Positions 2,107 through 49,669 of a stretch of 64,000 nt of DNA are shown piece by piece. Within the stretch, counting starts at the first letter, position 1. The number at the start of each line of letters is the position of its first letter. Source of the stretch: Candidatus Moraniibacteriota bacterium (GTDB taxonomy: Bacteria > Patescibacteriota > Minisyncoccia > Moranbacterales > UBA1568). The stretch lies in the NCBI GenBank assembly GCA_030648835.1, contig JAUSGT010000002.1, forward strand, positions 200,081 to 264,080, given 5' to 3'. Both the position numbers and the translations under genes were made by a program. The notes below the pieces were generated by a model. It did no database searches. It was not told the DNA's origin and saw only the letters and a list, made by a program, of their open reading frames with translations.

Positions 2107-2553
2107 ATGCATTGCCCATTTTGCAATCATCCGGAAACCAAGGTTATCGATTCTCGCGATACGCAGGAAGGACGGGCGATTCGCCGGCGCCGCGAATGTG
2201 AGAAATGTCAGGCCCGCTTCAGCACTTATGAAGAAGTGGAAATTTTTCGTTTGCAAATCGTCAAAAAGGATGGGCGCAAGGAGGAGTATGACCGCACAAA
2301 AATTGAGCATGGTTTGGAGCGGGCTTTTGTAAAGCGCCCCGGAGCGGAAGACCATATCGAAAAAATCATGGGGGAGATAGAGTATGAGTTGCACGAAAAA
2401 AGGGCGGATGAAATTTCCAGTCGGGAAATCGGCACGCTGGTTATGCGAAAATTGAAAGAAACCGATGAAGTGGCCTATATCCGCTTCGCATCCGTGTACA
2501 AATCTTTCGGCAGCGCCAAAAGCTTTCTTCGGGCGCTGGAGACTCTCGAGTAG
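2107..2553 (+). CDS. nrdR: Transcriptional repressor NrdR (zinc ribbon + ATP-cone)
   Basis: MHCPFCNH...CEKCQARF zinc ribbon followed by an ATP-cone-like region, 148 aa. Confidence 0.9.
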   Translation: MHCPFCNHPETKVIDSRDTQEGRAIRRRRECEKCQARFSTYEEVEIFRLQIVKKDGRKEEYDRTKIEHGLERAFVKRPGAEDHIEKIMGEIEYELHEKRADEISSREIGTLVMRKLKETDEVAYIRFASVYKSFGSAKSFLRALETLE

Positions 2554-2580
2554 ATTTTTTTGGTGTTTTCTTGTGTAGTT

Positions 2581-2767
2581 CCTAAATATTGTTTTTTCTT
2601 TCCCTTTTTTGTCGCCGAACATTTCTGACTCACTCTGTCGAACAGGGAGCTGTCCTGTCGAGACCCTGCCTACCGGCAGGCAGGCATCCGTCACGCTCGA
2701 CTGTTACCGACTCGTTCGTCACAAATGTGACCGTCGCCAACCGGAGAAAGAAAAAACAATATTTAGG
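2581..2767. mobile_element. MITE-like repeat family A, copy 1
   Basis: Core of about 130 bp (cgaacatttctgactcactctgtcgaac...gtcacaaatgtgacc) bracketed by a perfect 23-bp inverted repeat (cctaaatattgttttttctttcc / ggaaagaaaaaacaatatttagg). Sits immediately 3' of nrdR. Confidence 0.6.
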
Positions 2768-2788
2768 AACTACTTTCGAATGTGACAT

Positions 2789-3010
2789 ATGCAAAAAATT
2801 TCCGTGACTATCGTTCCGCGGTCGGGGAAAAATAGTGTCGAAAAAACTGGAGAACATTCGTATCGCGTACACGTGACAGCCATTGCCGCTGAAAATCAGG
2901 CGAACCAGAAATTGATCAAAGTGTTGGCAAAGTATTTTTCCGTCGCGCCCAGCCTCCTGACGATTGTTTCCGGGGCGCGGAGCCGGAAAAAAATCATAGA
3001 GACTTTGTAG
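2789..3010 (+). CDS. DUF167 (YggU-like) small protein
   Basis: 73-aa ORF whose length and composition fit the UPF0235/YggU family. It lies between two MITE-A copies. Confidence 0.55.
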   Translation: MQKISVTIVPRSGKNSVEKTGEHSYRVHVTAIAAENQANQKLIKVLAKYFSVAPSLLTIVSGARSRKKIIETL

Positions 3011-3022
3011 ATTTTCTTAAAT

Positions 3023-3244
3023 AAGGTCTTTATTACTTCTTTTCTTCTCGTGGCAGCCATCGAACATTTCTGACTCACTCTGTCGAACGGGGAGCTGTCC
3101 TGTCGAGACCCTGTCTACCGGCAGGCAGGCATCCGCCCGCCTCGACGAGCGAGAGCGAGGCCGGGTCACGCTCGACCGTTACCGACTCGCTCATCACAAA
3201 TGTTACCGCTGCCTGCCAAAGAAGAAAATAAATACATAAAGACC
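3023..3244. mobile_element. MITE-like repeat family A, copy 2
   Basis: Same core as copy 1 with an extra internal GC-rich hairpin segment, bracketed by an imperfect ~35-bp inverted repeat. Sits between the DUF167 gene and comEC. Confidence 0.6.
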
Positions 3245-3260
3245 CAAAGGGAATGGTGTT

Positions 3261-4745
3261 ATGTTGATGAAGGACCAGGTTTTTCTTTTGGCGTGCCTGG
3301 GGTATATCGGGGGAGTCTTTGCGGGCTCTTTTTTTGTTGTTCCGGGGTGGATGCTTTTTCTCGGAGCTGCTCTGTGGGGCGCGCTTTTTGTAACGTTTCC
3401 GAGAAAGAATATTTTTCTCCTTTTCTTTCCTTTTGGGCTGTTCCTTTTTGGCACTTTTTCCGTTACACAATCCCTCGAACATTTTCACGAGGAGAATATG
3501 CGGATGGGCGAAGTGTCCGGCATAGTGCGCGTTGTTAGTGATCCGGAAGAGAAAAGTTTTTATAACCAAATCATCATCCGGATGGAAACATGTGAGAGTG
3601 AAGTGTGCCCATCGGAAAAAATCCTTTGGCAAGCGCCGAAAACCGTGGCCGTTGTTTCTGGCGCACGAATGGAATTTTCCTGTGCATTAGAACTGCCGGA
3701 AAACTTTGATCCGACGTTTGATTATCGGATGTTTCTGGCTAAGGATAATGTTGGGTATGTTTGTCGCAAGGCGTCATCGTGGGTCACTTTGCCAGAAGAC
3801 GATCGAACACGTTTCGCGAGAATCTTTTTTTGGCCGAAACACGCTTTTGAAGAAGCTCTTGGCAAAAGCTTGCCCCAGCCGGAAGCGGGACTGGCTCTCG
3901 GGCTCATCGTGGGGGGTGACAATCGTTTGCCTGAAACGCTGAAAACAGCTTTCGCCCGGGTAGGACTGACTCATATCGTTGCTATCTCAGGATACAACAT
4001 CGCGCTCATCGCTCAAGGGCTTTTGATTTTCGGTATTGGTATTGGATTGTGGCGGAAGCAAGCGATTTTTCTGGCGGCTCTGGGGGTTATATTTTTTGTT
4101 TTTCTTGTGGGTGCTCCGGCTTCGGCTGTTCGCGCTGGCGTTATGGGACTCTCTGTGTTCGCCGCTTTTTTTGTCGGTCGGCTGTCGCGTGGAGTGAATA
4201 TGCTTCTTTTGGCGGCGGTATCTATGCTCTTTTTTCAGCCACTCCTTCTGCGTTATGATGTCGGTTTTCAATTATCGTTTTTGGCGACACTTGGCATCAT
4301 CGTCATGGCGCCATTTATGGATCGATTTTTATCCAAAGAATTTTTTGGCAAAGGTTTTCTCGAGATATTTTTTCTTACTTTTGCCGTGGAGCTCTTTGTG
4401 ATGCCGGTACTCATGTATCAATTTCATATTTTTTCTCCCTGGGCGCTTCTGACCAATGTCCTCTTGCTTCCGCTGGTACCGTACGCTATGGCGCTCGGGT
4501 TCGTTTCGGCTGTCGCGTTTTTTATTTTGCCGGGACTCCATATGCTACCGGCCACTCTGACGTATTTTTTCTTATGGGTTATCACGTATGTTGTGGAGCG
4601 ATTTGGTGCGTTACCGAGCGCCACGATAGAGGTGTCTCTCGGCGGGGTGGCGCTTCTCGCGTGGTATGTTCTTCTGTTTTTTGGTATCGTGATAATGAAA
4701 AAACAGCTGCGACGGAAATATGTCCAAACGAAAGATCTTTCTTAG
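3261..4745 (+). CDS. comEC: ComEC/Rec2 competence membrane channel (DUF4131 + competence domain)
   Basis: Polytopic membrane protein with GLTHIVAISGYNIALIA-type competence-domain motifs. It overlaps the next ORF by 26 nt in a different frame. Confidence 0.8.
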   Translation: MLMKDQVFLLACLGYIGGVFAGSFFVVPGWMLFLGAALWGALFVTFPRKNIFLLFFPFGLFLFGTFSVTQSLEHFHEENMRMGEVSGIVRVVSDPEEKSFYNQIIIRMETCESEVCPSEKILWQAPKTVAVVSGARMEFSCALELPENFDPTFDYRMFLAKDNVGYVCRKASSWVTLPEDDRTRFARIFFWPKHAFEEALGKSLPQPEAGLALGLIVGGDNRLPETLKTAFARVGLTHIVAISGYNIALIAQGLLIFGIGIGLWRKQAIFLAALGVIFFVFLVGAPASAVRAGVMGLSVFAAFFVGRLSRGVNMLLLAAVSMLFFQPLLLRYDVGFQLSFLATLGIIVMAPFMDRFLSKEFFGKGFLEIFFLTFAVELFVMPVLMYQFHIFSPWALLTNVLLLPLVPYAMALGFVSAVAFFILPGLHMLPATLTYFFLWVITYVVERFGALPSATIEVSLGGVALLAWYVLLFFGIVIMKKQLRRKYVQTKDLS

Positions 4746-5568: not shown

Positions 5569-5652
5569 CTTATCTGTATTTTAGACTCTGCGTGCCCTTC
5601 GATTCCGGTTCAACAACCAAAAGTAATCTTTTGTCATTATTTCACCTCTCAG

Positions 5653-5728
5653 AAGCGCTCTCGGCTGGCGAAAAAAGCAAACACTAATCGACGGCGGGAA
5701 TATTCCTTTTTTCGAACCGAGAGCGCTC
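5653..5728. repeat. Palindromic repeat family Y, copy 1
   Basis: Long imperfect palindrome centred on aatcgacggcggga. A second copy lies at 46619-46696. Confidence 0.45.
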
Positions 5729-5857
5729 CTTCAGTCATTGTGAAACAAACGCCAAAAAATTCTTTTGGTTGCTGAGTTTATTATTACAAGTCTTGCCATT
5801 TCTGTTTTTTTATGTCATGCTTGTTTTCAGCAAAGTAATTGGTTGAGGAAAATACTT

Positions 5858-7339: not shown

Positions 7340-7534
7340 AATGGTATGAAAAATATCGCCCAAGTTTTGAGTGTCAAGGGTCTCCTTCTTCTCAAGAAAG
7401 GATAACTTGATGCTGGGAAAATATTTTTTAGAAAGAGAACCCGGCATCAAGACCGGGATTTTTGTTTTTTAACAACAAAAAAGTCTGTCAAATTCCAATT
7501 TTCCATCGAGTGTTTCATGGTGAAGGAGAAAGCA

Positions 7535-7699
7535 ATGACTGAGCAACAAGAGAGGGATCTGGTTTTGGGGCTGCCACCGGAGCAATTGATGGCAAATTTG
7601 CGCCTTGTCCAGGAACGTTTGGATGGTGGCGATAGTGTCAACCCGAACTGTAGTGATACGCGGGTGGAGGATACGGAGGTTTTGAAAGAACAAAAATAA
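7535..7699 (+). CDS. Small acidic hypothetical protein (54 aa)
   Basis: ATG 7 nt downstream of an aaggag RBS. No recognisable domain. Confidence 0.35.
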   Translation: MTEQQERDLVLGLPPEQLMANLRLVQERLDGGDSVNPNCSDTRVEDTEVLKEQK

Positions 7700-7870
7700 T
7701 GTTGTGCTACGTCATGACAAAGAAAGGAGCGATCTGCGGACCGTTCCTTTTCAATTCGCTAGAATTCTGATACGCTCAAGGTTGTTTCGGGCTGTAGCCC
7801 TCCTTCGTCCTACGGATTGCGGGTCGCACGCCGCCAAAGGCTCTGGCCGACGGAGCGCGGGTAAATATAT

Positions 7871-7941
7871 CGGAGTGTAGTATAGTGGTAGTACGCAAGG
7901 CTGGGGGTCTTGTAGTCCGGGTTCGATTCCCGGCACTCCGA
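7871..7941 (+). tRNA. tRNA-Pro (anticodon GGG)
   Basis: Manual cloverleaf: acceptor cggagtg/cactccg, D-arm gtat/gtac, anticodon stem caagg/tcttg with loop ctGGGgg, T-arm ccggg-ttcgatt-cccgg, discriminator A. CCA is not encoded. Confidence 0.85.
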
Positions 7942-7990: not shown

Positions 7991-8039
7991 GCGGGTGTTT
8001 CCGTAAGACATCTCGGCTTACGGATTAAAGACACACCGG

Positions 8040-8074
8040 AGCATGTAGGCCGGGTTCGATTCCCGGCAGCCCGA
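8040..8074 (+). other. Partial duplicate of the tRNA-Pro 3' half (variable loop, T-arm, 3' acceptor strand)
   Basis: 31/35 nt identical to tRNA-Pro positions 7907-7941, including an identical 17-nt T-arm. No matching 5' half lies within 85 nt upstream. Confidence 0.5.
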
Positions 8075-8098
8075 CAGTTTTTCGTAATAAAAAAATTT

Positions 8099-8296
8099 AT
8101 GAATCTGCAGACGTATAAAAAACTGAAGCAAGAAACTGAAGAAACAGTTGTGGCTTTCGGCGAGAACTCTCTTTCGGAGCTTGTGGCGTTGGAGCGTGAG
8201 GCTGAAACGGCGGAAGGAGAATTTGTGGCGGAGCTTGAAGCGATCAAAACAGAAGAGCTTCGAAAAAAACTCAAAGGTATTCCGGCTTCCGAATAA
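8099..8296 (+). CDS. Small acidic hypothetical protein (65 aa)
   Basis: ORF only. No RBS and no recognisable motif. Confidence 0.25.
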   Translation: MNLQTYKKLKQETEETVVAFGENSLSELVALEREAETAEGEFVAELEAIKTEELRKKLKGIPASE

Positions 8297-8300
8297 ATTT

Positions 8301-11400: not shown

Positions 11401-11488
11401 CCGGCTTTGCAGTATGTAACAGAGGGCGTCTTGAAACTTGAGACGCCTTTTAACTTTTTTATATAATTTTTTCTCTAAAGCCTCCCTT

Positions 11489-11617
11489 GCAAGCAACCTT
11501 CTCGGGAGTCATTTGTCCGTCCAGCGACGGACTTCACTTATGAACTTTTTTTGATCCGTCAAAGTGATGGCACCGTGCTCAAAAAAACTTCAACTCTCCC
11601 GAGAATGTTCTTGCGAC
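11489..11617. mobile_element. MITE-like repeat family X, copy 1
   Basis: About 128 bp with ~22-bp terminal inverted repeats (gcaagcaaccttctcgggag...ctcccgagaatgttcttgcgac). Second copy at 49505-49631. Outer flanks form a short inverted repeat. Confidence 0.55.
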
Positions 11618-11714
11618 TGGAGGCTTGTCCTGAACAGGTAGAAATTAGTGCGGGGTTGACCACCGTCGCTCGCTTGCCACGGTCGTTCGCGAAACGACGT
11701 GGTGAGGGACGCGG

Positions 11715-12832: not shown

Positions 12833-14935
12833 ATGAGAAAGACGCCAATTGAAAATTATAGAAATATCGGTATCATCGCGCACATCGACGCCGGCAAGAC
12901 GACGACGACCGAGCGTATTTTGTTTTACACCGGTATTACCCACAAGATCGGCGAAGTACACGAAGGGACAGCTACCATGGACTGGATGGAGCAAGAGCAA
13001 GAGCGGGGGATTACCATCACCTCTGCTGCTACCACTTGTTTTTGGAAGGGATATCATATCAATATCATCGACACGCCGGGGCATGTGGACTTTACTGTGG
13101 AAGTGGAACGCAGTTTGCGTGTTTTGGACGGTGGAGTGGTGGTATTCGATGGCAAGGAAGGTGTCGAACCGCAATCGGAAACCGTGTGGCGCCAGGCTGA
13201 AAAGTATGGCGTGCCTCGGATGTGTTTTATCAACAAAATTGACAAAGAGGGGGCAGTCTTCGAAGATGCTCTGGCTTCTATCTGGAATCGTTTGACTCCG
13301 CACGCCGTGGCTATCCAGTATCCGCTGGGATTGCGCGGTGATTTTTATGGATTGATCGACCTTATGTTGATGAAGGCCTTTACTTTCGAGGGAGAGATGG
13401 GAGAAAAAGTAATCGAAGGAGAAATCCCGGCCGAATATCTCGACCGTGCCAAGGAGTGGCGGGAAAAAATGGTGGAAAAAATATCCGAAACGGATGACGC
13501 GTTGACGGAGAAATACTTGAATGGCGAGGAAATTTCTGTGGCTGAATTGAAAGCGGCTTTGCGCCGCGCGGTCATCGGCGTGCGCCTCCATCCCGTATTT
13601 ACCGGTACCGCTCTCAGGAACAAGGGTGTGCAGCTGATGCTTGATGCTGTCGTGGATTATTTGCCATCGCCGATCGATATTCCTCCGGTGACAGGTATTG
13701 ACCCTGAGACAGACCAGGAGCTGGTGCGTGAAACGAGAGACGATGAGAAATTTTCTGCTTTGGCGTTCAAAATTGCTACTGATCCATTCGTTGGGCAGTT
13801 GACATTTTTCCGTGTGTATTCCGGTACGGTCAAGGCCGGTTCTTATGTACTGAACTCCACCAAGAATGAAAAGGAACGCATCGGACGAATCTTGCGTATG
13901 CATGCCAATCATCGCGAAGAAATCGAGGAACTGACGGCCGGGGACATCGGCGCTTTGGTCGGGATGAAATCAACCACGACCGGTGATACGCTGTGTGATT
14001 TGGAAAGCCCGGTCATTCTCGAGAACATCGTCTTTCCGGAACCGGTCATCGATATTTCCATCGAACCGAAAACCAAAGTCGATCAGGAAAAAATGGGAGT
14101 GGCTTTGAAAAAATTATTGGAAGAAGACCCGACTTTTCGCGTTCACACCGATGAAGAAACCGGCCAGACAATCATGTCCGGTATGGGAGAACTGCACCTT
14201 GATATTCTGGTGGACCGGATGAAGCGCGAATTTAAAGTGGAAGTGAATGTCGGCCGTCCGCAAGTGGCCTATCGTGAAACGATTCGGACAACAGCGGAAT
14301 CAGAAGGCAAATACATCCGTCAGTCGGGTGGTCGGGGACAGTACGGACATTGTTGGATCCGCGTAGAACCGCAACCCGAACCGGGGCTGGGTTATGAATT
14401 CTTGAACGAAGTCAAAGGTGGAGCCATTCCGCAAGAGTTCATCAAGCCGATCGATAAGGGTATTCAAGAGGCTATGCAGACGGGAGTATTGGCCGGCTAC
14501 CCAATGGTGGATATCAAAGCCACAGTTTTTGATGGTTCGTATCATGATGTTGACTCTTCCGAAGCCGCTTTCCGCATCGCCGGTTCCATGGCGTTCAAGG
14601 AAGCCTGTCGTAAAGCCAAACCAGTGCTTCTTGAACCGATTATGAAAGTAGTGGTGATTACGCCGGAGAATTTTATGGGTGATATTGTGGGGGACCTTTC
14701 TTCCAAGCGTGGGGTGATCAAGGAAATGAACGCGCGCGGCGAAGGGGCTTCCGCCGTGAAAGAAATTCATTCCGAAGTGCCGCTCTCGACCATGTTCGGT
14801 TATGCCACCCAGATGCGCTCCATGTCTCAGGGCCGCGCCAACTACTCCATGGAATTCGGCCACTATGCCGAAGTGCCAACCAATGTTGCAACGGAAATTA
14901 TTGGTAGTCGTCAGGCGCCAGGGGAAGGGAAGTAG
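12833..14935 (+). CDS. fusA: Elongation factor G
   Basis: [16 protein letters not shown]-domain and full EF-G domain order. Start at the ATG preceded by an aggaa RBS. Confidence 0.95.
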
Positions 14936-36828: not shown

Positions 36829-38232
36829 ATGCTGCAAGAATCATTTTTCAAAGATAAGCGGATTACCGTGTTTGGCCTTGGCCTCAATACGGGGGGTGTG
36901 GGGACGGTCAAATTTCTTGTGGAGCGAGGTGTCCGCGAGGTTATCGTGACTGATATCAAGTCGCGCGAAGAGCTTGAGCCGTCGCTTCAAAAACTGGCGA
37001 AATACAAGAACGTGACGTACGTGCTTGGTCAACATCGGCCGGAGAATTTCACGCACGTTGATATGGTAATCAAAAATCCCGTCATCCCTTGGACGAATGA
37101 ATATGTGAAGTTGGCAGAAAAGCATGGCGTACCGGTAGAGATGGATTCAAGTATCTTTTTTGCGTTGTGTCGGGTACCGATAATCGGTGTGACAGGAGCC
37201 AAAGGGAAGACGACGACGGCGACTTTGATTGCGCATATATTGGAAAAAGCCGGCAAATCCGTTACCCGCGTCGGCATTGGACAGGCAGGCGTTCTCGGAA
37301 CGTTGGGGGATATTACACCGGAAAGCGTTGTCGTGTTCGAGCTTTCTTCATGGCGGCTTTCGGCGCTTGGTCGTCTCAAAAAAAGTCCGCACGTAGCTGT
37401 TTTGACAAATATCTATCCGGACCACCTCAATTATTACAAGACAATGGCCGCGTACATTGCCGACAAAAAAAATATCTTTTTGTTTCAGAAACAGAAAGAT
37501 ATTTTGGTAGCCAGTTTCGATGATGTGGAAATACGCACCATGGCGCAAGATGCCAAAGGAATACTGCTCTGGTTTTCCAAAGGACTGGAGGTCGATGGCG
37601 ATGGCGCATGGGTGAAAGACGAAAAAATATATATACGCAGACAAGGGAGCGTACAGGAGTTGCTTCCGCTCGAACACGTCCCTTTCAAGGGTGAACACAA
37701 TATGGGGAATATTGTGGCGGCGGTTGTTGCAACTCTGGCTTACGGAATATCTCCGAAACAAATTGCCAGCGGGATAAGGAGTTTTGTCGGATTACCGCAT
37801 CGTTTGGAGTATATAGGAGAGAAAAAGGGTGTTGGGTATTACAACGATACGGCGGCGACAATACCGGAAGCAACCATTGCCGCCCTGCGTTCTTTTACGG
37901 AGCCGGTTATTCTTATTGCCGGAGGGAGCGATAAACGCCTGGATTTCGGCACGTTGGCCAAAGAAATTCTTAAACGTTCCAAGGGGCTGATTCTTTTCAA
38001 GGGTGATGCGACGGAAAAACTTTTGCAAGCGCTGAAAGAAGCGCTGCCCGCAGGGGAAAAGGAACGTTCTTTTGAGGTAGTGGAAAGCATGGCTAAGGCA
38101 GTGGAATTGGCAACTCGCGGTGCGGAACCGGGCGATATCGTTCTTCTTTCCCCCGGCGCGACAAGCTTTGGAATTTTTAAAAATGAATTTGATCGTGGAG
38201 AACAATTTCGCAAAAGCGTCAGTGAACTATAA
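36829..38232 (+). CDS. murD: UDP-N-acetylmuramoylalanine--D-glutamate ligase
   Basis: ITVFGLGLNTGG Rossmann N-terminus and GVTGAKGKTTT Mur-ligase P-loop. Confidence 0.9.
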   Translation: MLQESFFKDKRITVFGLGLNTGGVGTVKFLVERGVREVIVTDIKSREELEPSLQKLAKYKNVTYVLGQHRPENFTHVDMVIKNPVIPWTNEYVKLAEKHGVPVEMDSSIFFALCRVPIIGVTGAKGKTTTATLIAHILEKAGKSVTRVGIGQAGVLGTLGDITPESVVVFELSSWRLSALGRLKKSPHVAVLTNIYPDHLNYYKTMAAYIADKKNIFLFQKQKDILVASFDDVEIRTMAQDAKGILLWFSKGLEVDGDGAWVKDEKIYIRRQGSVQELLPLEHVPFKGEHNMGNIVAAVVATLAYGISPKQIASGIRSFVGLPHRLEYIGEKKGVGYYNDTAATIPEATIAALRSFTEPVILIAGGSDKRLDFGTLAKEILKRSKGLILFKGDATEKLLQALKEALPAGEKERSFEVVESMAKAVELATRGAEPGDIVLLSPGATSFGIFKNEFDRGEQFRKSVSEL

Positions 38233-38349: not shown

Positions 38350-39585
38350 ATGAACAATCCTCTCGAATCTGCTCGTCAGCAGCTGGCCAATATACAAACC
38401 ATACTAAAAATTGATCCGAATATCTTCGAACGTCTGCTGTACCCCGATCGGATGATCGAGGTGGCGGTACCGGTCAAGATGGATGACGGTACGACAAAAA
38501 TATTTATTGGGTACCGCTGCCAGCATAATAACGCGCGTGGACCGTACAAGGGCGGGATCCGTTTCCATCCTGGCGTGACGCGCGAAGAAGTCATGGCTCT
38601 TTCGATGTGGATGACGTGGAAAACAGCTGTCGTGGATATTCCCCTTGGTGGCGGCAAGGGTGGCGTGATAGTGGATGTCAAACAACTTTCACAGAGAGAA
38701 TTGGAAGCCCTTTCTCGCAGTTACATGCAGGCAATTTTTCCTCTCGTGGGGAAAAATCAAGACGTGCCGGCGCCGGATGTTTCGACGGATGCCCGCATCA
38801 TGGGCTACATGCTTGATGAATATGAGAGTCTTTTGGGTGAGCGTGCTCCCGGGGTGATTACCGGAAAACCGTTGTCCATCGGTGGGTCGCTCGGTCGTGG
38901 CTACGCGACAGCGCAAGGAGCCTTCTATATATTGGAGCGGGCGGCCGAAAAACTGCATCTCGGTAAAGAAGCGAGCGTGTTGATTCAAGGGTTCGGCAAC
39001 GGCGGCGGACATTTGGCACGGATGCTTCATAAAGCCGGCTATAAGGTTGTCGCCATAGCTGATTCGAAAACGACAGTATATCGGAGCGAGGGACTCGATG
39101 TGGTAGAAGTGGATGAACACAAGCGCATGACCGGTGACTTGAAAACTTGTGAAGGATGTGAGAAGCTGCCAATCGATGCGGTACTCTCTCTTCCGGCGGA
39201 CATCCTTGTGCCTGCGGCGCTCGAGAATGCGATTCACGCGGGGAATGCGGATACCGTACAGGCGAAACTCATTGTGGAAATTGCCAACGGACCTACGACA
39301 CCGGAAGCGGAAGAGATGCTTCTCAAGAAGGGGATTACGGTGGTACCGGATATTTTGGCCAATGCCGGGGGAGTAGCTGTTTCGTATTTTGAGCAGGTGC
39401 AGAACGCGATGAACTACTCCTGGACGGAAGCGGAGGTCAATGTCAAACTGAAAGAGAAGATGGAAACGGCCTTTGAGGCAGTATGGGGTGAAAAAGAGCG
39501 TTATACTACATCTGTGCGTATGGGCGCGTACGCGCTCGCTGTGAGACGGGTGGCGCAGGCGATGCAGGATCGCGGGAGGATGTAA
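38350..39585 (+). CDS. gdhA: Glutamate dehydrogenase
   Basis: GGGKGG and GFGNGG(G)H nucleotide-binding motifs. Confidence 0.9.
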   Translation: MNNPLESARQQLANIQTILKIDPNIFERLLYPDRMIEVAVPVKMDDGTTKIFIGYRCQHNNARGPYKGGIRFHPGVTREEVMALSMWMTWKTAVVDIPLGGGKGGVIVDVKQLSQRELEALSRSYMQAIFPLVGKNQDVPAPDVSTDARIMGYMLDEYESLLGERAPGVITGKPLSIGGSLGRGYATAQGAFYILERAAEKLHLGKEASVLIQGFGNGGGHLARMLHKAGYKVVAIADSKTTVYRSEGLDVVEVDEHKRMTGDLKTCEGCEKLPIDAVLSLPADILVPAALENAIHAGNADTVQAKLIVEIANGPTTPEAEEMLLKKGITVVPDILANAGGVAVSYFEQVQNAMNYSWTEAEVNVKLKEKMETAFEAVWGEKERYTTSVRMGAYALAVRRVAQAMQDRGRM

Positions 39586-39591
39586 TTTTCA

Positions 39592-39762
39592 TTTACAAAA
39601 CTTTCTTTTTTCATTCATCGTATTTCCCGAACACTTCTGACTCACTCTGTCGAACAGGGAGCTGTCCTGTCGAGACCATCCGTCACGCTCGACTGTTACC
39701 GACTCGCTCGTCACAAATGTTACCGATAAATACGAGGTGAAGAAAAAAGGAGTCTTTGTAAA
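39592..39762. mobile_element. MITE-like repeat family A, copy 3 (lacks the central hairpin segment)
   Basis: Core cgaacacttctgactcactctgtcgaacagggagctgtcctgtcgagacc...gtcacaaatgttaccg bracketed by an imperfect ~38-bp inverted repeat. Sits immediately 3' of gdhA. Confidence 0.6.
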
Positions 39763-39790
39763 AAGAGGTAACTGTTTTAATTTCAAAATT

Positions 39791-40705
39791 ATGTACGATG
39801 TGATAATTATTGGTGGAGGACCGGGAGGAGTGGCAGCCGGAGTGTACGTAGCGCGCAAGCAATTGAAAACGCTGTTTATCACGGAGCATTTTCAAAGTCA
39901 ATCGGCGGTGTCGGCGAGTATTGAGAACTGGATCGGCACTCTCTCGATCACAGGGTGGGAGTTTGCGGGGATGCTCGAAAAGCATTTGCGGGCGCAGGAG
40001 GGGATTGAAATTGTTACGGAAGTGCGGGCGACCGCTGTTTTGGGAAAAGATGGTCATTACGTAGTGAAGACAACTGACAACAAAGAATACGAGACAAAAA
40101 CGATCATTATCGCGGCTGGTGGCCGACATCGTCATCTCGATATCCCCGGCGAAGAGAAGTTCAAGGGCAAGGGAGTTGTCTATTGTTCGACGTGTGATGC
40201 GCCGTTCTTTCGCGGTAAGTCAGTGGCTGTGGTGGGTGGCGGCAATGCGGGGTTGGAAGCTGTGGAGGACTTGTTACCGTACGCATCCGCAATCACGCTT
40301 TTGGTGCGCTCTGGTGTTCTCAAGGGTGATCCGGTGACGCAAGAAAAAGTTTTGGCGTCGGAAAAAGTAAAAGTGATGTACAATGTTTTGCCACAAGCGG
40401 TGTTGGGTGAGACAAATGTGGTCGGGCTGACATATAAAGACGCAAAGACCGGTGAAGAAAAAACATTACCGCTCGACGGTGTGTTTGTGGAAATTGGGAT
40501 GGTACCCAACACTGAATTCGTGAAAGATTTGCTCGACCTCAATCCGCGCGGAGAAATTATTCTTGACCATCGGACCAAGGCAACGTCCAAGCCGGGAATT
40601 TTCGCGACCGGTGACGCCACCGACGCCCCATATAAACAGAACAATATTTCCGCTGGTGATGGAGTAGTCGCCGCCTTGTCCGTGTATGATTACTTGCGCA
40701 GATAG
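39791..40705 (+). CDS. trxB: Thioredoxin reductase
   Basis: YDVIIIGGGPGG FAD motif and CSTCDAPFF redox CxxC. Start at the internal ATG. Confidence 0.9.
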   Translation: MYDVIIIGGGPGGVAAGVYVARKQLKTLFITEHFQSQSAVSASIENWIGTLSITGWEFAGMLEKHLRAQEGIEIVTEVRATAVLGKDGHYVVKTTDNKEYETKTIIIAAGGRHRHLDIPGEEKFKGKGVVYCSTCDAPFFRGKSVAVVGGGNAGLEAVEDLLPYASAITLLVRSGVLKGDPVTQEKVLASEKVKVMYNVLPQAVLGETNVVGLTYKDAKTGEEKTLPLDGVFVEIGMVPNTEFVKDLLDLNPRGEIILDHRTKATSKPGIFATGDATDAPYKQNNISAGDGVVAALSVYDYLRR

Positions 40706-40757
40706 AAGAGCTAACGCAATTAGCCGGATAGATTATAGAAGAGGCTGTTTTCTGAAA

Positions 40758-40782
40758 AAATGCTTTGTTTGAAGCATTTTTT
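40758..40782 (+). terminator. Rho-independent terminator after trxB (aaatgctt...aagcattt + T-run)
   Basis: 8-bp stem followed by ttttt. Confidence 0.5.
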
Positions 40783-40793
40783 ATGATTTGCTC

Positions 40794-40822
40794 TGGACAA
40801 AATTAACAAAAAGGTGTATACT
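40794..40822 (+). promoter_or_regulatory. Sigma70 promoter TGGACA-17-TATACT upstream of the DGR target gene
   Basis: Good hexamers at 17-nt spacing. A 5' UTR of about 150 nt follows, with a perfect 15-bp inverted repeat (ttttgccatagcgaa/ttcgctatggcaaaa). Confidence 0.5.
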
Positions 40823-40979
40823 AAGCGGTTCATTAAAAATTCATACTTTTGCCATAGCGAAGAGACTTTTCACATTTTTGGAAGCAAGGCTTCCAAAAAG
40901 AGGTGTTGTGGAAATTTTTTCGCTATGGCAAACTCGAAGACTCGAGAGCCCGCTGGCGTGTATCTGAAAGGAACAGACC

Positions 40980-41798
40980 ATGAATACTCATGGAACAGAC
41001 CGCTCGGTACCGACTATGCAACAGGTGAAGCAGCTGGGGATTTTACTTGGATTCATCCTGGAAATTGTGACCAGGATCGTTACACGCTATTTCTTCGCCT
41101 TGAACTCTGACGAAGCGAAGGCTACGCTCCAGAACAAAGGAGCCCTTTCCAAGAAAATCAAGGTTGCGCTTGCGCCGGTGTTTATGATGGCAGTCGATGA
41201 ATATGCTGCCCAACGAACGTATTGGGAAGGCATCTATCTCACTCACTACGGCATGGCTGCGGATTTCGGCGAAGTAACGGTGCCGGAGAAACCGACAGTC
41301 GGCAAGTGGCGCCTCATTTTCATTCTGAAGGGATTGACGATGAATCACGCGGCGGCCATGTACCGAAAAATTCTTGCGGCCATCGATCCACCGTGGCAAC
41401 TGGTACAGTATATCGATGATTTGGACGCGCAGATTCCTTACAACATTCGTACTTCGGCAGAATCCTATGCTCTTTGGGTACGGGATGGGCAAGAGGCTGA
41501 CGAGGAATTTCGTGCTCAAACGACCAGCCAAGCCGATCCGAATCAATTGATTGGTGTCACGCCGCTCGAGCGTCTCGTTCATGGAGCAGCCCATTTTGTT
41601 GAAACCAAACAACACCTCGACGAGAAAGGGATTACTATCTGTTCAGGTTCGCGCAATGCGGATGGCTGCGTGCCTTGCGTGTGCTCGTATCCGGACAGTC
41701 GCGAGGTGTGCGTGTTTTGGTACAATCTGGGCTATTCGTTTTCCGCTGGCGGTGTCCGTCGAACAGTAGCGCTGCCGCAGGCGGCGCAGACAGCTTAA
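40980..41798 (+). CDS. DGR target protein (variable C-terminal ligand-binding region)
   Basis: 272-aa ORF whose last ~40 codons are the VR (SRNADGCVPCVCSYPDSREVCVFWYNLGYSFSAGGVRR). N-terminal hydrophobic segment. Confidence 0.75.
   Translation: MNTHGTDRSVPTMQQVKQLGILLGFILEIVTRIVTRYFFALNSDEAKATLQNKGALSKKIKVALAPVFMMAVDEYAAQRTYWEGIYLTHYGMAADFGEVTVPEKPTVGKWRLIFILKGLTMNHAAAMYRKILAAIDPPWQLVQYIDDLDAQIPYNIRTSAESYALWVRDGQEADEEFRAQTTSQADPNQLIGVTPLERLVHGAAHFVETKQHLDEKGITICSGSRNADGCVPCVCSYPDSREVCVFWYNLGYSFSAGGVRRTVALPQAAQTA
41645..41766 (+). repeat. DGR variable repeat (VR)
   Basis: 122 bp that differs from the TR at 16 positions, all where the TR has A and the VR has T or G. Confidence 0.8.
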
Positions 41799-42106
41799 CC
41801 TCGATTCTCAACTCTTTTTCTCTTTTTTCCCCGCTGTGCGCGTGCGCGCAGCGGGCTTTTGTTTTTGTCTTTTTCCATCCTTTTCTCGAAAGCTTTGAGA
41901 AGTTGTTGTATACTACAGAAGGTTGTTAAGCCAGTCTTGCTTGGGCAAGATGATGGTTTGCCAAGAACTGAAACTGCCTGTGAGTATTTACGCATAGATT
42001 TTTCATGGTAGGAAATGATGCGACACAGCGCTCGTGACCACGAGGAACACAGATGCTCTGGCGACAGAGGTTCGGTGATAGGGATGGATACTCACAGTAA
42101 AGATGG

Positions 42107-42228
42107 AGGTTCGCGCAATGCGGATGGCAACGTGCCTTACGTGAACTCGAATCCGGACAATCGCAAGGTGAACGTGAATTGGTACAATCTGGACAATTCG
42201 AATTCCGCTGGCGGTGTCCGTCGAGAAG
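42107..42228 (+). repeat. DGR template repeat (TR)
   Basis: Non-coding cognate of the VR with A at all 16 variable positions, rich in AAC/AAT codon-equivalents. The overlapping ORF 42015-42281 is probably not a gene. Confidence 0.8.
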
Positions 42229-42249
42229 TTTCAACACAAGAACATCCCG

Positions 42250-42624
42250 CTAGAGTGCGGGATTTTGTGTCAGGTATTTGATCCAACCATTCGTCATTTT
42301 GGAAGTTTCAACGAGGAGAGCAGCTACCTCGATGTATGATTTTTCAGGGATGACCTTTTGTTCATATTCTATGCGCACCAGGTGTTTCAGGATTTCCAGA
42401 GAGACGCGTACATGCTCGAGTATTTCTCGTTTCTGATATTTCTGCGTGAGCGAGGCGCGAAGGATACCGCTCATGGTTTCTAGCGTGAGATGCTCAATAA
42501 CCTGGTGGATACCGAGTTTATCTCGTTTGGGAATCTTGTGTCCAATTTGGTACAGAGTGGCATATACTTGTTTGATACTATGAACAATCGAAATATCATT
42601 ACTCCGAAGGGGGGGGGGTAACAC
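42250..42624 (-). CDS. avd: Avd-like accessory variability determinant (four-helix-bundle family)
   Basis: 124-aa helical protein between the TR and the RT. Size and placement are typical of DGR Avd, though it is divergently oriented. The N-terminal PPP is encoded by a C10 tract. Confidence 0.55.
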   Translation of the reverse strand: MLPPPLRSNDISIVHSIKQVYATLYQIGHKIPKRDKLGIHQVIEHLTLETMSGILRASLTQKYQKREILEHVRVSLEILKHLVRIEYEQKVIPEKSYIEVAALLVETSKMTNGWIKYLTQNPAL

Positions 42625-42715
42625 TAGAGGAAATTTTTTTCATGATATTATCAGTGTAGCAAATCTTCTCGCCGCTTGGAAAGAGTTTCGGAAGGGAAAA
42701 AGGAAAAAAGGTGAT

Positions 42716-43672
42716 GTGGCTTTGTTTGAATTTCAACTGGAAGACAACTTACTGCAACTGCATCAAGAGCTGGCTTCCCAGACCTACAGGCACGGTCCCT
42801 ACGAAGGTTTTTATGTTTCTGATCCCAAGTTGAGGCACATTCACAAAGCTAGTGTGCGCGATCGAATTCTGCATCAAGCGATTTTCCGTGTGCTATATCC
42901 GATTTTTGACGCGCATTTTATTTATGATTCGTATTCATCGCGCGTTTCCAAGGGTACCCACTTTGGCGTGAAGCGCCTCTTGCAAGCCTGTCGCAAAGTA
43001 AGCGAGAATTGGAAAGCTCCGGCGTACGCGCTGAAATGTGATATACGCAGGTTTTTTGATTCGATAGATCATGCAATTTTGCGCAAGCTCGTCGTAAAGA
43101 AAATTACCGACCATAAGACGCTATGGTTGATCGATATCATTTTTGCAAGCTTTGAGAAAGAAAAAGGGAAAGGACTGCCGCTCGGAAATGTCACCAGCCA
43201 GCTTTTTGCCAATATCTATCTCAATGAGCTGGATCAATTCGCGAAACATACATTGAAGGCGAGGCATTACTTCCGTTATTGCGATGATTTTATTATTGTT
43301 CACCGCAATCGGATTTTTCTTGAAGAAGCATTGGTAAAAATAAGAGCCTTTGTTTCTGAAACATTGTTTTTGGAACTGCATCCTTATAAAGTGGAAATCC
43401 GCAAAGTCAGTCAGGGAATCGATTTTCTGGGCTATGTCATTTTGCCACACCGGACAGTCGTGCGGATGGCTACCAAGAGCCGTCTACTACGAAAGTTAAA
43501 CGATGCCCGAAAAAACTTTCGGACCGGGAAGATAACAGGAGAGACGTTTGGAAGTATTATACATTCTTACCTCGGCGTACTTTTACACTCACGGAACCGG
43601 AGAATAAGAAGATGGGTATGGAAGTTACGCGAGTTGACACAAAGCGGAGATAAAAATGTAAAGTGGCGGTGA
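42716..43672 (+). CDS. DGR reverse transcriptase
   Basis: RT motifs DIRRFFDSIDH (A), LPLGNVTSQLFANIYLNELD (DGR-type motif 4/B) and RYCDDFII (YxDD). Conserved N-terminal residues continue in frame upstream to about 42647 without a canonical start codon. Confidence 0.85.
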   Translation: MALFEFQLEDNLLQLHQELASQTYRHGPYEGFYVSDPKLRHIHKASVRDRILHQAIFRVLYPIFDAHFIYDSYSSRVSKGTHFGVKRLLQACRKVSENWKAPAYALKCDIRRFFDSIDHAILRKLVVKKITDHKTLWLIDIIFASFEKEKGKGLPLGNVTSQLFANIYLNELDQFAKHTLKARHYFRYCDDFIIVHRNRIFLEEALVKIRAFVSETLFLELHPYKVEIRKVSQGIDFLGYVILPHRTVVRMATKSRLLRKLNDARKNFRTGKITGETFGSIIHSYLGVLLHSRNRRIRRWVWKLRELTQSGDKNVKWR

Positions 43673-43682
43673 TTGACGAGAT

Positions 43683-43711
43683 GGTAAAAACGTGCTACAA
43701 TGGGTGTACAA
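43683..43711 (+). promoter_or_regulatory. Sigma70 promoter TTGACG-17-TACAAT
   Basis: Near-consensus hexamers immediately after the RT stop. Confidence 0.5.
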
Positions 43712-43717
43712 GTTTGA

Positions 43718-43971
43718 GGCGGGCCGCCACGACTGGGTCGGGCGAGCCTCGCCAAAACGGCGGGAGTTTCATGGGTGAAACGTCCGTTTTTCTTTTTCTA
43801 GGAAGGTCGGCAATGAAAATTGTTACTCTCCCTAGGGGAAATGTTCATTAAAAACAAAAACCAAAACAAAAAACAAAAACCTTTGTTTTCACCAAAAACA
43901 AGGCAAGTTCTCTTGCCTTGGCCTCTCGAAAAAGAGGCCAGATAGGCCGCTAACTCTTTAGCGGTCTTTTT
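43718..43971 (+). ncRNA. Candidate non-coding or leader transcript (GC-rich structured 5' part, CA-rich tract, terminator)
   Basis: Bounded by a promoter and a terminator hairpin (ccgctaa...tagcgg + T-run). Contains an (AAAAC)n-like tract. Only very short ORFs. Confidence 0.3.
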
Positions 43972-44011
43972 ATTGATTTAAAGCCTGTTCTCGGCTATAC
44001 TGGGCAATAAG

Positions 44012-46559: not shown

Positions 46560-46618
46560 CTTCTTAGTTTTGAGACGGTCTATAATTTCAAAGATTTTTT
46601 GTTTCTGCTCCAGACTTG

Positions 46619-46696
46619 CCAAGGCTTTTGGTTAGCGAAAAAAATCGCCTCCAATCGACGGCGGGACACAGCTCTTTTTTCGAACCAAGAGCCTTG
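46619..46696. repeat. Palindromic repeat family Y, copy 2
   Basis: Imperfect palindrome sharing the core agcgaaaaaa...aatcgacggcggga...cttttttcgaacc with the copy at 5653-5728. Confidence 0.45.
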
Positions 46697-46796
46697 CCTC
46701 AGACAAGTGGAGCAACCAAAAAAAATCTTTGAAATTACAAGACATGGGGGTTTCTCTGATTTCCAGCCTGATTCATGATTCTTAATTCCCGATTCT

Positions 46797-48301: not shown

Positions 48302-49480
48302 ATGAAAAGTCAAGAGACAGAAGTGAACAAAAAAAGACCTCAAAAAGTGGCTTTAGTTCACGATTTTTTGGTGGCGTACGGAGGTGCGGAGCGGGTACTT
48401 CAGGCAATGGCTGAGATGTTCCCGGAAGCACCGATTTATACGCTCCTGTATGATAAAGAGCAAATGGGCGATCATTTTCATGGTCGGGATATCCGAGTAT
48501 CGTGGCTTTCCAAGCTGCCGCAGTTTTTGAAAAAACGCTATCGTTTTTTTCTGCCGTTTTTCCCGGTGGCGGTGGAGTCGTTCGATCTTCGGGACTTCGA
48601 TCTGGTGATTTCTTCTTCGGGAGCATGGAGCAAGGGTATTGTGACGCGCCTCAATACGAAACACATCGCGTATCTGCACTCCCCGATGCGTTATGCCTGG
48701 GATTACCATGAAACATATTTGGGGGAATTGGGCGCTCGTGGAAAGTTACGTATTTTCACCCGGATGCTTATGAGTTATCTTCGGGTGTGGGATCGGCAGG
48801 CGGCGGAGCGGCCGGATGCCCTTATCTCCAACTCCCGGTTTACAGCGGCGCGGGTGAAGAAATACTATCGGCGAGAGAGTGAGGTGGTATACCCACCGGC
48901 AATGGATTTATTTAATAAGACACAGAATACCCGTTCGATAGAGGCAGAGATCCCTCGACAAGCTCGGGATGACAGTGGAAGTCGCCGTCACTTTTTGGTC
49001 GTATCGCGTCTGACTCGTTCCAAAAAAATTGACAGAGTTATTGAAGCATTCAACAAGCTGGAACTTCCGCTTCTGATTGTCGGTGATGGACCGGAGCGTG
49101 CCCGCCTCCAAGCCCAGGCAGAAAAAAATATCCGCTTCGTAGGATTCACCAGTGATGAAGAGTTGGCGAAATTGTATGTTTCCGCTCGGGCCGTTATCTT
49201 TCCTTCGGAAGAAGATTTTGGTATGGTGGCGGCGGAGGCGCTTTCTTTCGGTACGCCGGTGATCGCGTATGAATATGGCGGCATTCGGGAAATCGTGAAA
49301 CTTGGGGAAACTGGGGAATTGTTTCATGCGGAGACGCCGGAAATTATCGCTGAGGGGGTGCGGCGGTTTCTCCAGCATGAGGGGCAGTACGATGAAGTGG
49401 CGATGAAGCAATCGGTGGCGCATCTGACGAAAGAAAATTTTCAGAATGGTATAAGAAAGTTTTTGGAAATGAATGTGTAA
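48302..49480 (+). CDS. GT4-family glycosyltransferase
   Basis: GT-B C-terminal domain motifs (EDFGMVAAEALSFGTPVIA). Confidence 0.8.
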   Translation: MKSQETEVNKKRPQKVALVHDFLVAYGGAERVLQAMAEMFPEAPIYTLLYDKEQMGDHFHGRDIRVSWLSKLPQFLKKRYRFFLPFFPVAVESFDLRDFDLVISSSGAWSKGIVTRLNTKHIAYLHSPMRYAWDYHETYLGELGARGKLRIFTRMLMSYLRVWDRQAAERPDALISNSRFTAARVKKYYRRESEVVYPPAMDLFNKTQNTRSIEAEIPRQARDDSGSRRHFLVVSRLTRSKKIDRVIEAFNKLELPLLIVGDGPERARLQAQAEKNIRFVGFTSDEELAKLYVSARAVIFPSEEDFGMVAAEALSFGTPVIAYEYGGIREIVKLGETGELFHAETPEIIAEGVRRFLQHEGQYDEVAMKQSVAHLTKENFQNGIRKFLEMNV

Positions 49481-49504
49481 AAGTTATTTTTTATAGTATT
49501 GATC

Positions 49505-49631
49505 GTAAGCAACCTTTCCGGGAGCCTTTCGTTCGTCCAGCGACGAACTCTCTGTGTGAACTTTTTTCGATCCGCCGAATCGGCGGCACCATGCTCGAAA
49601 AAACTTCAACCCTCCCAGAAAGATTCTTACG
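49505..49631. mobile_element. MITE-like repeat family X, copy 2
   Basis: High similarity to 11489-11617. TIRs gtaagcaacctttccgggag / ctcccagaaagattcttacgac. Flanked by tagtatt/aatacta. Confidence 0.55.
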
Positions 49632-49669
49632 ACAATACTACCTACACTTTAGTTTTTATAATTTCTATT

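Follow-up and report, generated by a model that had tools for sequence, protein, structure and literature searches.

Two groups of described bacterial repeats come closest to the element reported here, which we call family A and which occurs in three copies in a 64-kb stretch of the genome of a Candidatus Moraniibacteriota bacterium (contig JAUSGT010000002.1; this whole stretch is hereafter the window). The first group comprises the repetitive extragenic palindromes (REP/BIME) and REPINs of proteobacteria, which are mobilized by RAYT, a Y1 HUH transposase. They are non-coding and extragenic, lie at gene junctions within operons, form hairpins, fall into several genome-specific families, are co-transcribed and lack the terminal repeats of classical transposons. 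The second group comprises the ERIC/IRU, Correia (NEMIS), RUP and BOX repeats, rod-like imperfect palindromes of 100–200 nt that are found in transcribed intergenic regions and are present or absent among related genomes. Variants that differ in their internal modules are typical of ERIC/BOX-type repeats.

Family A resembles both groups in these respects, and differs from them in what is conserved. A REP unit spans 20–40 nt, has a conserved GTAG-type head and is conserved over its full length, whereas in family A only the centre is conserved and the outer stem is specific to each copy. In addition, the window carries no RAYT/Y1 gene, and the copy number of family A is apparently low (3 per 64 kb). 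ERIC, Correia, RUP and BOX repeats have conserved terminal inverted repeats and defined target duplications (e.g. TA), whereas family A has variable termini, no detectable duplication, extensive compensatory evolution of its helices and a fixed collar made of a T-tract and an A-tract. On balance, if only narrowly, we regard family A as a non-coding, non-autonomous palindromic repeat of Candidatus Moranbacteria that is similar to REPs and to miniature inverted-repeat transposable elements (MITEs) but has non-conserved termini. Its repetition, its insertion polymorphism and the structural maintenance of its hairpin are established below, as is its lack of coding or known RNA signals. It appears to work like REP/REPIN, ERIC, Correia or BOX repeats; because it is without conserved terminal inverted repeats, and neither a target duplication nor a cognate transposase was found, we do not file it in any of these named families. 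We consider it a previously undescribed repeat family. The searchable literature on MITE, REP or hairpin repeats of the candidate phyla radiation (CPR), Patescibacteria or Moranbacteria, and on an 18-mer, yielded nothing relevant.

The window contains exactly three copies (A, B and C; coordinates in table 1), all on the plus strand, and each of them small (170–220 nt), non-coding and dispersed. A 21-mer and a 25-mer from the core, with up to three mismatches allowed, matched the window three times each against about 0.01 matches expected, and neither nhmmer --max nor an unfiltered covariance model found further copies in it. The gene order is ftsZ-nrdR-A-DUF167-B-comEC for the first two copies and gdhA-C-trxB for the third (Pfam). 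Measured from the upstream stop codon, the hairpin starts after 7–22 nt and the core after 42–62 nt. The initial annotation, made from the sequence of the window, had reported three copies downstream of nrdR, DUF167 and gdhA, and k-mer searches, alignment and Pfam neighbours agree with it. Its description of the copies as lying directly after a gene stop applies to all three in the window and fails as a rule, a member in another genome (L008, see below) being located between divergently transcribed genes. Database look-ups of the DUF167 and TrxB proteins of the window, aimed at population variants, returned no record.

When folded, each copy forms a single long rod-like hairpin. On the plus strand, the folding energies are −84.2 kcal/mol for copy A (z = −9.9), −90.9 kcal/mol for copy B (z = −6.1) and −48.2 kcal/mol for copy C (z = −2.6). 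The hairpin is built in four layers. The outermost is a stem of 10–28 bp that is different in every copy; the arms of copy A are complementary at 28/28 positions, and those of copies B and C are near-perfect. The second layer is the collar, in which a T-rich tract on the 5' arm, TTTTTTC[A/T]TTC (TTTTTTCWTTC), pairs with an A-rich tract on the 3' arm, GAAGAAAAAA. The third is a helix of 11–13 nt per arm, whose sequence depends on the copy while its complementarity is kept (e.g. GGCAG/CTGCC in copy B and TCGTATTT/AAATACGA in copy C). The innermost layer is a conserved core of about 100 nt with a variable apex, 93–97% identical among the three copies, which follows the pattern CGAACA[T/C]TTCTGAC ... 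CACAAATGT[G/T]ACCG. Read directly from the sequence, the core consists of tandem units of about 20–24 nt in inverted arrangement; those of the 5' arm (two to three) start with CGAACA, and those of the 3' arm (two) end with TGTTACCG. That is, the units form inverted doublets, and each unit is itself not palindromic. The alignment shows two clean internal indels: a 20-nt hairpin that is missing from copy C and a 30-nt insert found in copy B only. The 20-nt hairpin is an apical quasi-palindrome, CCTG[C/T]CTACCGGCAGGCAGG, which among the window copies belongs to A and B only.

The T/A tract pair lies 11–13 nt outside the core in all six known members of the family, including the divergent one in L008. 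Since this distance is fixed in every member, the flanks belong to the element. In the initial annotation, the flanks had been described as copy-specific outer inverted repeats that share a pyrimidine tract. The copy-specific repeats and the shared tract are both real, and the conserved tract pair means that the flanks are not copy-specific throughout. The broader picture of a multi-copy, non-coding family with a conserved core inside copy-specific complementary outer stems is supported.

The helices have been maintained by paired changes. In an alignment of five sequences, the minus strand has 58 pairs, 23 of them changed on both sides, with 92.8% of cells paired; the plus strand has 61 pairs, of which 24 have changed on both sides, with 84.3% of cells paired. 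Adding the L008 member gives a six-sequence alignment, fitted to the model, in which 26 of 50 minus-strand pairs have changed on both sides and 93.7% of cells are paired. None of 500 shuffles reached the observed value in any of these comparisons, and slid controls of the five-sequence minus-strand alignment had 44–51% of cells paired. With 23–26 double-sided pair changes, covariance analysis fits the earlier suggestion of a structured module with a variable outer stem, although any DNA mechanism that maintains a palindrome gives the same signal, and the counts by themselves cannot tell RNA from DNA. Complete turnover of the outer helices next to a nearly invariant core is not uniform neutral decay; it requires constraint on the core sequence together with either selection for pairing or templated copying from arm to arm.

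The initial annotation had also suggested looking for copies beyond the window, and relatives are found in three other Moranbacteria genomes: L001, L011 and, as a divergent copy, L008. The family thus has six known members. A core 19-mer scanned against the GTDB representative genomes gave one true match, L001, a Moraniibacteriota metagenome-assembled genome (MAG). Two metagenome matches to this 19-mer (L002 and L003) had only the seed in common with family A and were attributed to chance, and viral contigs searched with two core patterns gave no match. The L001 copy (2148–2292) is located 3' of mreB. Over 155 nt it matches copy C at 93.5% identity, even though the two loci are non-orthologous and the surrounding genes are only 65–82% identical; L018, a closer relative, is without the family at both of these sites. 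Between these genomes, identity at the third codon positions of nrdR is 42–50%, i.e. saturated. High identity at non-orthologous loci, combined with saturated silent sites, indicates that the element is conserved beyond the genes of its host.

The other two relatives are more divergent. The L011 copy (7398–7555; JGI 3300045995) occupies the DUF167/comEC junction, which is also the junction of copy B, and has in common with copy B four diagnostic positions and identical blocks of 21/21 and 29/29 nt. Its 'terminal' helix carries paired substitutions (ACATTT/AAATGT to ACAGAT/ATCTGT), and its apex and outer stem differ. The L008 member (14263–14436) was found by a covariance model of five copies (42 bits, E ~1e-9 under a rough calibration). 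It shares the collar and the CGAAC...GTTGCCG helix with the other members, but 9/13 central pairs have changed on both sides, and an unfiltered search with the model through about 180 kb of Moranbacteria loci gave no other additional member. Three independent samples yielded short-read Logan contigs (L004, L005 and L013) that break inside the element, as is expected of a repeat, and the first of these contigs matches the first 78 nt of copy A at 100% identity.

Comparison of orthologous gene junctions reveals what was inserted. At nrdR/DUF167, the genes overlap or are separated by 3–10 nt in L006, L011, L016 and L017, the gap is 235 nt (copy A) in the window, and L014 has an unrelated 132-nt hairpin; L008 is without DUF167, so that nrdR directly abuts comEC. 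At DUF167/comEC, the gap is 0–3 nt in L006, L016 and L017, and family A is present in the window and L011. The mreB/glycosyltransferase junction has five different states across five genomes: the genes are 4 nt apart in L021; L018 has an unrelated 81-nt hairpin, L001 family A and the window a hairpin of another family; and in L019 a gap of 183 nt separates mreB from an IS200-like Y1 transposase gene. Finally, the divergent spacer between L28 and the M50 peptidase gene measures 66 nt in the window and 96 nt in L006, and both can be aligned with the 359-nt spacer of L008, where about 250 extra nt, outer stem included, hold the divergent member. Presence/absence polymorphism is thus found at four orthologous junctions. 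None of the empty sites (nrdR/DUF167, DUF167/comEC, mreB/glycosyltransferase in L021 and L28/M50) contains a palindrome, which identifies the whole hairpin as the inserted unit, as opposed to a core dropped into an older palindrome. In short, the entire hairpin, including its outer stem, was inserted at otherwise compact gene junctions, and family A landed at different junctions in different genomes. The palindrome-free empty sites, and the tract pair fixed in six members, contradict the proposal of the initial annotation that the element targets palindromes and inserts into the loop of a pre-existing inverted repeat. When filled and empty sites were compared at three junctions, no consistent direct repeat marked a target-site duplication, the genomes being too diverged for base-exact boundaries.

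Other hairpins occupy some of the same territory. At least three further, unrelated hairpin-repeat families have the same layout, with a conserved centre, covarying stems and copy-specific outer arms (table 1). In L011, the spacer that holds the family A copy contains, directly 3' of it, a second unrelated long hairpin (7572–7911), whose arms (GAAGGGTTTGTTTCT.GGAG and CTCCGCTAGAAACAAACCCTTC) are enclosed by a further outer pair, so that a single junction accumulates hairpins in tandem. The transposase gene of L019, a metagenome contig (2444–2950, Pfam Y1_Tnp, IS200/IS605 type), is flanked by CCGCGGCTTGCCGCGG hairpins that are unrelated to family A. The MreB protein encoded next to it is 100% identical to that of the window, and the gene order 3' of mreB differs between the two. 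We considered this transposase as a mobilizer of family A and rejected it, as its flanking hairpins are unrelated and the window has no homologue of it.

Family A was also compared with other classes of element, and none of them accommodates it. Scanning the whole window with the 4227 models of Rfam 15 at gathering score returned a single tRNA and nothing at the copies, and at E <= 10 the stretch 2500–3300 gave only a spurious 16-bit plastid match; the core thus corresponds to no known non-coding RNA family in Rfam, a check that had been called for at the outset. Scans of both strands found neither a sigma-70-like promoter nor an intrinsic terminator at any of the copies. Unlike the U-run of a terminator, which follows the GC-rich stem, the T-run of family A belongs to the 5' arm and pairs with an A-tract. 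No conserved open reading frame (ORF) is possible, since every frame is interrupted by the 20-nt indel, and coding potential was rejected on this ground. Conserved terminal inverted repeats, the hallmark of a MITE, are missing: the outermost 10–28 bp are copy-specific, and conserved inverted sequence begins only at the T/A tracts and the core. Neither is family A an imperfect palindrome of 20–40 nt with a GTAG-like head, as a REP or REPIN would be, GTAG occurring only at the edges of copy A and the L008 copy. The attC sites of integrons are likewise imperfect palindromes directly 3' of stop codons and have a strand-specific folded form. Their layout is the reverse of that of family A, with conserved outer R''/R' boxes (RYYYAAC/GTTRRRY) and a variable centre, and CGAACA/GTTACCG is off this consensus; moreover, attC sites accompany gene cassettes and an integrase, whereas family A has syntenic housekeeping genes as neighbours and no integrase was seen. 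Analogies with 6S RNA, Y RNA, retrons and bridge RNA were set aside on layout, an absent partner gene or the lack of an Rfam match. A Pfam scan of 10 of the roughly 60 ORFs in the window found one mobile-element gene, the reverse transcriptase of a diversity-generating retroelement (DGR), which was considered as a partner of family A without any link being found.

If family A is a mobile palindromic repeat, its conserved centre, with the iterated CGAACA/TGTTACCG, could be the recognition site of a trans-acting protein encoded elsewhere, a candidate transposase, recombinase or nuclease that would copy the element. The complementarity of the arms may be preserved either through hairpin-templated correction, in which template switching or fold-back synthesis converts one arm to match the other, or through selection in favour of stable hairpins; each of these would produce perfect, copy-specific outer stems beside a conserved core. 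Within a genome, the cores may be homogenized by gene conversion, as is suggested by the mosaic nature of copy A, which combines B-like apical features with C-like diagnostic bases. In operons, the element would be co-transcribed as a long, non-terminating RNA hairpin, and its effect in place would be neutral or a side effect, e.g. as a possible RNase III or mRNA-stability site. Junctions would be colonized because, in compact genomes, they are almost the only sites where insertion is tolerated.

Several points weigh against the reading of family A as a mobile repeat. Its outermost ends lack conservation and a target-site duplication was not identified, which weakens the case for mobilization by a classical pair of terminal inverted repeats and transposase. 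No transposase was seen (the window has no Y1 homologue, and the Pfam scan covered 10 of its roughly 60 ORFs), and the known members number only six. A functional RNA, too, would be expected to combine strong conservation of sequence with covarying helices. Lastly, the better-folding strand is, in 6/6 members, the one antisense to the flanking genes, by 6.7–19.9 kcal/mol, and a simple selfish-DNA model does not predict such a strand bias.

These last two points lead to the main alternative, which is possible though rather doubtful: that family A is a functional structured RNA (an antisense small RNA, a ribozyme-like RNA or an intercistronic processing or regulatory element) whose copies arose by duplication and whose hairpin and conserved internal loops are under selection at the RNA level. 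Structured RNAs such as self-cleaving ribozymes and the intercistronic RNase III sites of phage T7 likewise combine conserved irregular segments, covarying helices and optional apical hairpins, the last of which typically vary in length within RNA families. Like the T7 sites, family A is intercistronic in position and has long, perfect outer helices of the length of an RNase III substrate. In addition, every helix covaries while blocks of 21–29 nt are invariant despite saturated synonymous sites. The better strand is also the better paired one in the alignment, with an alifold energy of −51.3 against −42.9 for the plus strand, and it accommodates 32 G.U cells against 8. The plus strand of the element is C-rich, with a GC skew of −0.10 to −0.16, while that of the window is +0.10 to +0.28 throughout. 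Given these opposed skews, the wobble bias would run contrary to the expected mutational bias: the usual C-to-T bias of the leading or non-transcribed strand should put wobbles on the plus strand, the opposite of what is observed. The wobble cells reduce, however, to about 18 against 7 positions (p ~0.04), and two of the G.U pairs were inherited by all copies.

The distribution of family A also speaks against a functional RNA. It is patchy, as for a mobile element, and most close relatives are without the element at the same junctions; those junctions hold unrelated hairpins elsewhere, which looks like colonization. The neighbours are functionally unrelated (DUF167, comEC, trxB, glycosyltransferase and M50 peptidase). 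No catalytic-core motif was recognized, and the better strand is antisense to the operon; in these points, as in its patchy distribution and the lack of an Rfam match, family A differs from structured RNA families. Nor does either strand have a promoter or terminator. Even so, the strand asymmetry is the main unexplained feature, and it keeps alive both an antisense RNA and a strand-specific single-stranded DNA intermediate.

We think it unlikely that family A is something new altogether, i.e. selfish DNA that has no conserved termini and spreads to new junctions through the copying of a protein-recognized quasi-palindromic centre with fold-back arms, or else that its conserved centre is a new antisense-strand class of structured RNA specific to the CPR. 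In the former case, the arms might be regenerated or extended by hairpin-templated synthesis, which would generate perfect locus-specific stems and nested, onion-like palindromes, and the 20-nt palindrome found as a precise indel might be the smallest such module.

This 20-nt module is also found by itself. In L018 it stands alone at 8278–8297 (19/20 match, opposite orientation), as a precise indel relative to position ~43866 of the window, between CAAAAACCAAAAC and AAAAAACAAAAACC, within a non-coding stretch that is more than 95% identical. In Moranbacteria, small hairpins are thus gained or lost whole, the apex of family A being one of the places where this happens. The perfect form, CTGCCTGCCGGCAGGCAG, occurs in 51 stretches (L024–L074) from very diverse viral contigs of 33–70% GC, sometimes several times per contig and sometimes inside what look by eye, without an ARAGORN check, like tRNA genes. 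By a rough estimate, about 3–20 occurrences are expected by chance in the viral collection, and the excess points to a recurrent small palindrome. The 20-nt quasi-palindrome CCTGCCTRCCGGYAGGCAGG may be a tiny mobile palindrome, a case of convergence or a technical sequence.

Nesting of this kind bears on an explanation that we consider improbable, namely that mobility is confined to the ~100-nt core, which would insert at the apical loop of palindromes already present at each locus. It would account for the copy-specific outer stems, and generic unrelated junction hairpins are common in relatives (L014, L018 and L019). The 20-nt module, which is nested apically in copies A and B and stands by itself elsewhere, is in keeping with it, as is an orthologous hairpin (window 43786–43835, L018 8126–8247) that has a common base and a different interior. 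For the element as a whole, the evidence runs the other way. The T/A tract pair keeps its fixed distance of 11–13 nt outside the variable helix, the empty orthologous sites are free of palindromes, and the outer stems are the best-paired layer, which is unexpected for the oldest one. No stem without a core was recognized in the window; a candidate at 37469–37505, tried as an 'empty' target palindrome, lies inside a Mur-ligase coding sequence and was rejected. Similarly, the idea that L001 and the window have the same locus-specific outer stem at mreB/glycosyltransferase with swapped cores failed a shuffle test (left p = 0.40, right p ~0.01) and was withdrawn. The suggestion of nested insertion made at the outset therefore survives for the 20-nt apical hairpin and not for the element as a whole.

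An assembly artefact, chimera or chance similarity is hardly credible: the source is a MAG and assemblers can create palindromes, but the family occurs in four independent assemblies produced by different projects (the window, JBAQEZ01, JGI 3300045995 and GCA_040960375), an independent Logan contig is identical to the first 78 nt of copy A, as noted above, and the copies are separated by point substitutions and compensatory changes.

Table 1. Family A copies, their parts and neighbouring genes, and other features discussed in the text. Positions refer to the window unless another locus is named.
Feature	Position	Strand	Remarks
nrdR, 5' neighbour of copy A	2107–2553	+	Pfam Zn_ribbon_NrdR and ATP-cone
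Copy A, whole hairpin	2575–2773	+	199 nt, between nrdR and DUF167
Copy A, outer stem, 5' arm (copy-specific)	2575–2602	+	contains T-rich tract 2589–2602
Copy A, conserved core CGAACATTTCTGAC ... CACAAATGTGACCG	2616–2733	+	alignment
Copy A, 20-nt apical quasi-palindromic module CCTGCCTACCGGCAGGCAGG	2665–2684	+	missing from copy C and L001
Copy A, outer stem, 3' arm	2746–2773	+	contains A-rich tract GAAAGAAAAAACAA at 2746–2759
DUF167 (YggU) gene, between copies A and B	2789–3010	+	Pfam PF02594
Copy B, whole hairpin	3024–3245	+	222 nt, between DUF167 and comEC
Copy B, T-rich tract	3036–3047	+	A-rich partner at 3221–3231
Copy B, conserved core with both apical modules	3061–3208	+	alignment
Copy B, 20-nt apical module CCTGTCTACCGGCAGGCAGG	3110–3129	+	one transition relative to copy A
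Copy B, 30-nt apical insert GCCCGCCTCGACGAGCGAGAGCGAGGCCGG	3135–3164	+	copy B only; alignment
comEC-like gene, 3' neighbour of copy B	3261–4745	+	Pfam Competence and DUF4131
gdhA, 5' neighbour of copy C	38350–39585	+	Pfam ELFV_dehydrog
Copy C, whole hairpin	39592–39764	+	173 nt, minimal form, between gdhA and trxB
Copy C, T-rich tract TTTCTTTTTTCATTC	39602–39616	+	partner GAAGAAAAAAGGAG at 39739–39752
Copy C, conserved core, without apical modules	39628–39725	+	98 nt; alignment
trxB-like gene, 3' neighbour of copy C	39791–40705	+	Pfam Pyr_redox_2
Other hairpin families	5610–5775 and 46583–46737		
Other hairpin families	11462–11626 and 49478–49633		
Other hairpin families	L008:9873–9952, L008:5998–6079, L001:6660–6735		
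DGR, variable repeat	41645–41767		
DGR, hairpin	41830–41855		
DGR, template repeat	42107–42229		
DGR, reverse transcriptase	42716–43672		

Further features of the window were noted in passing. The DGR (40980–43672) is complete. Its reverse transcriptase ORF matches Pfam RVT_1 (E = 1.4e-21), and its 123-nt template repeat matches the 3' end of the ORF at 40980–41798, 17/18 differences falling at template adenines; a GC-rich hairpin lies just 3' of the variable repeat. A block of about 3.1 kb that holds the DGR (40715–43864) is missing from the syntenic region of L018. 5' of the EPSP-synthase gene, the non-coding stretch 43700–43990 (L018:8050–8420) is more than 95% identical between the two genomes, against 77–87% for neighbouring genes. 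It contains a promoter-like box, a hairpin that resembles a terminator (GGGAGTTTCATGGGTGAAACGTCCG and a T-run after it) and then three consecutive hairpins (AAGGCAAG/CTTGCCTT, GGCCTCT/AGAGGCC and GCCGCTAA/TTAGCGGT), and is a candidate small RNA or leader with no Rfam match at gathering score.

Towards the end of the window, the ORF at 60633–63992 (>1100 aa, no Pfam match) contains six tandem repeats (62562–63022), five with a period of 87 nt (29 aa) and the last of 54 nt. Upstream of it are two more large ORFs without a Pfam match (56064–58160 and 58225–60624), with unusually high GC and AT skew, and all three probably encode surface proteins. The one tRNA at Rfam gathering score is at 7871–7941. 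About 133 nt downstream, the stretch ~8004–8079 has a T-arm region that is 89% identical (repeat family D9); it was not reported at gathering score and is probably a second tRNA gene.

The usual picture of CPR/Patescibacteria genomes is one of small size, compactness and little mobile DNA. The gene junctions of this clade have been colonized repeatedly by several unrelated families of long hairpins, and at least one of these, family A, is conserved in sequence beyond the genes of its own host while its stems evolve by paired changes. If family A is mobile, its copies would be useful as strain-typing markers, would have to be reckoned with as breakers of assemblies and would point to a mobilizing enzyme. 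If it is an RNA, it would represent a new structured class in a lineage with almost no experimentally studied non-coding RNAs. In either case, a conserved centre enclosed by perfect, copy-specific arms offers a concrete system in which to test arm-to-arm correction of short palindromes in bacteria.

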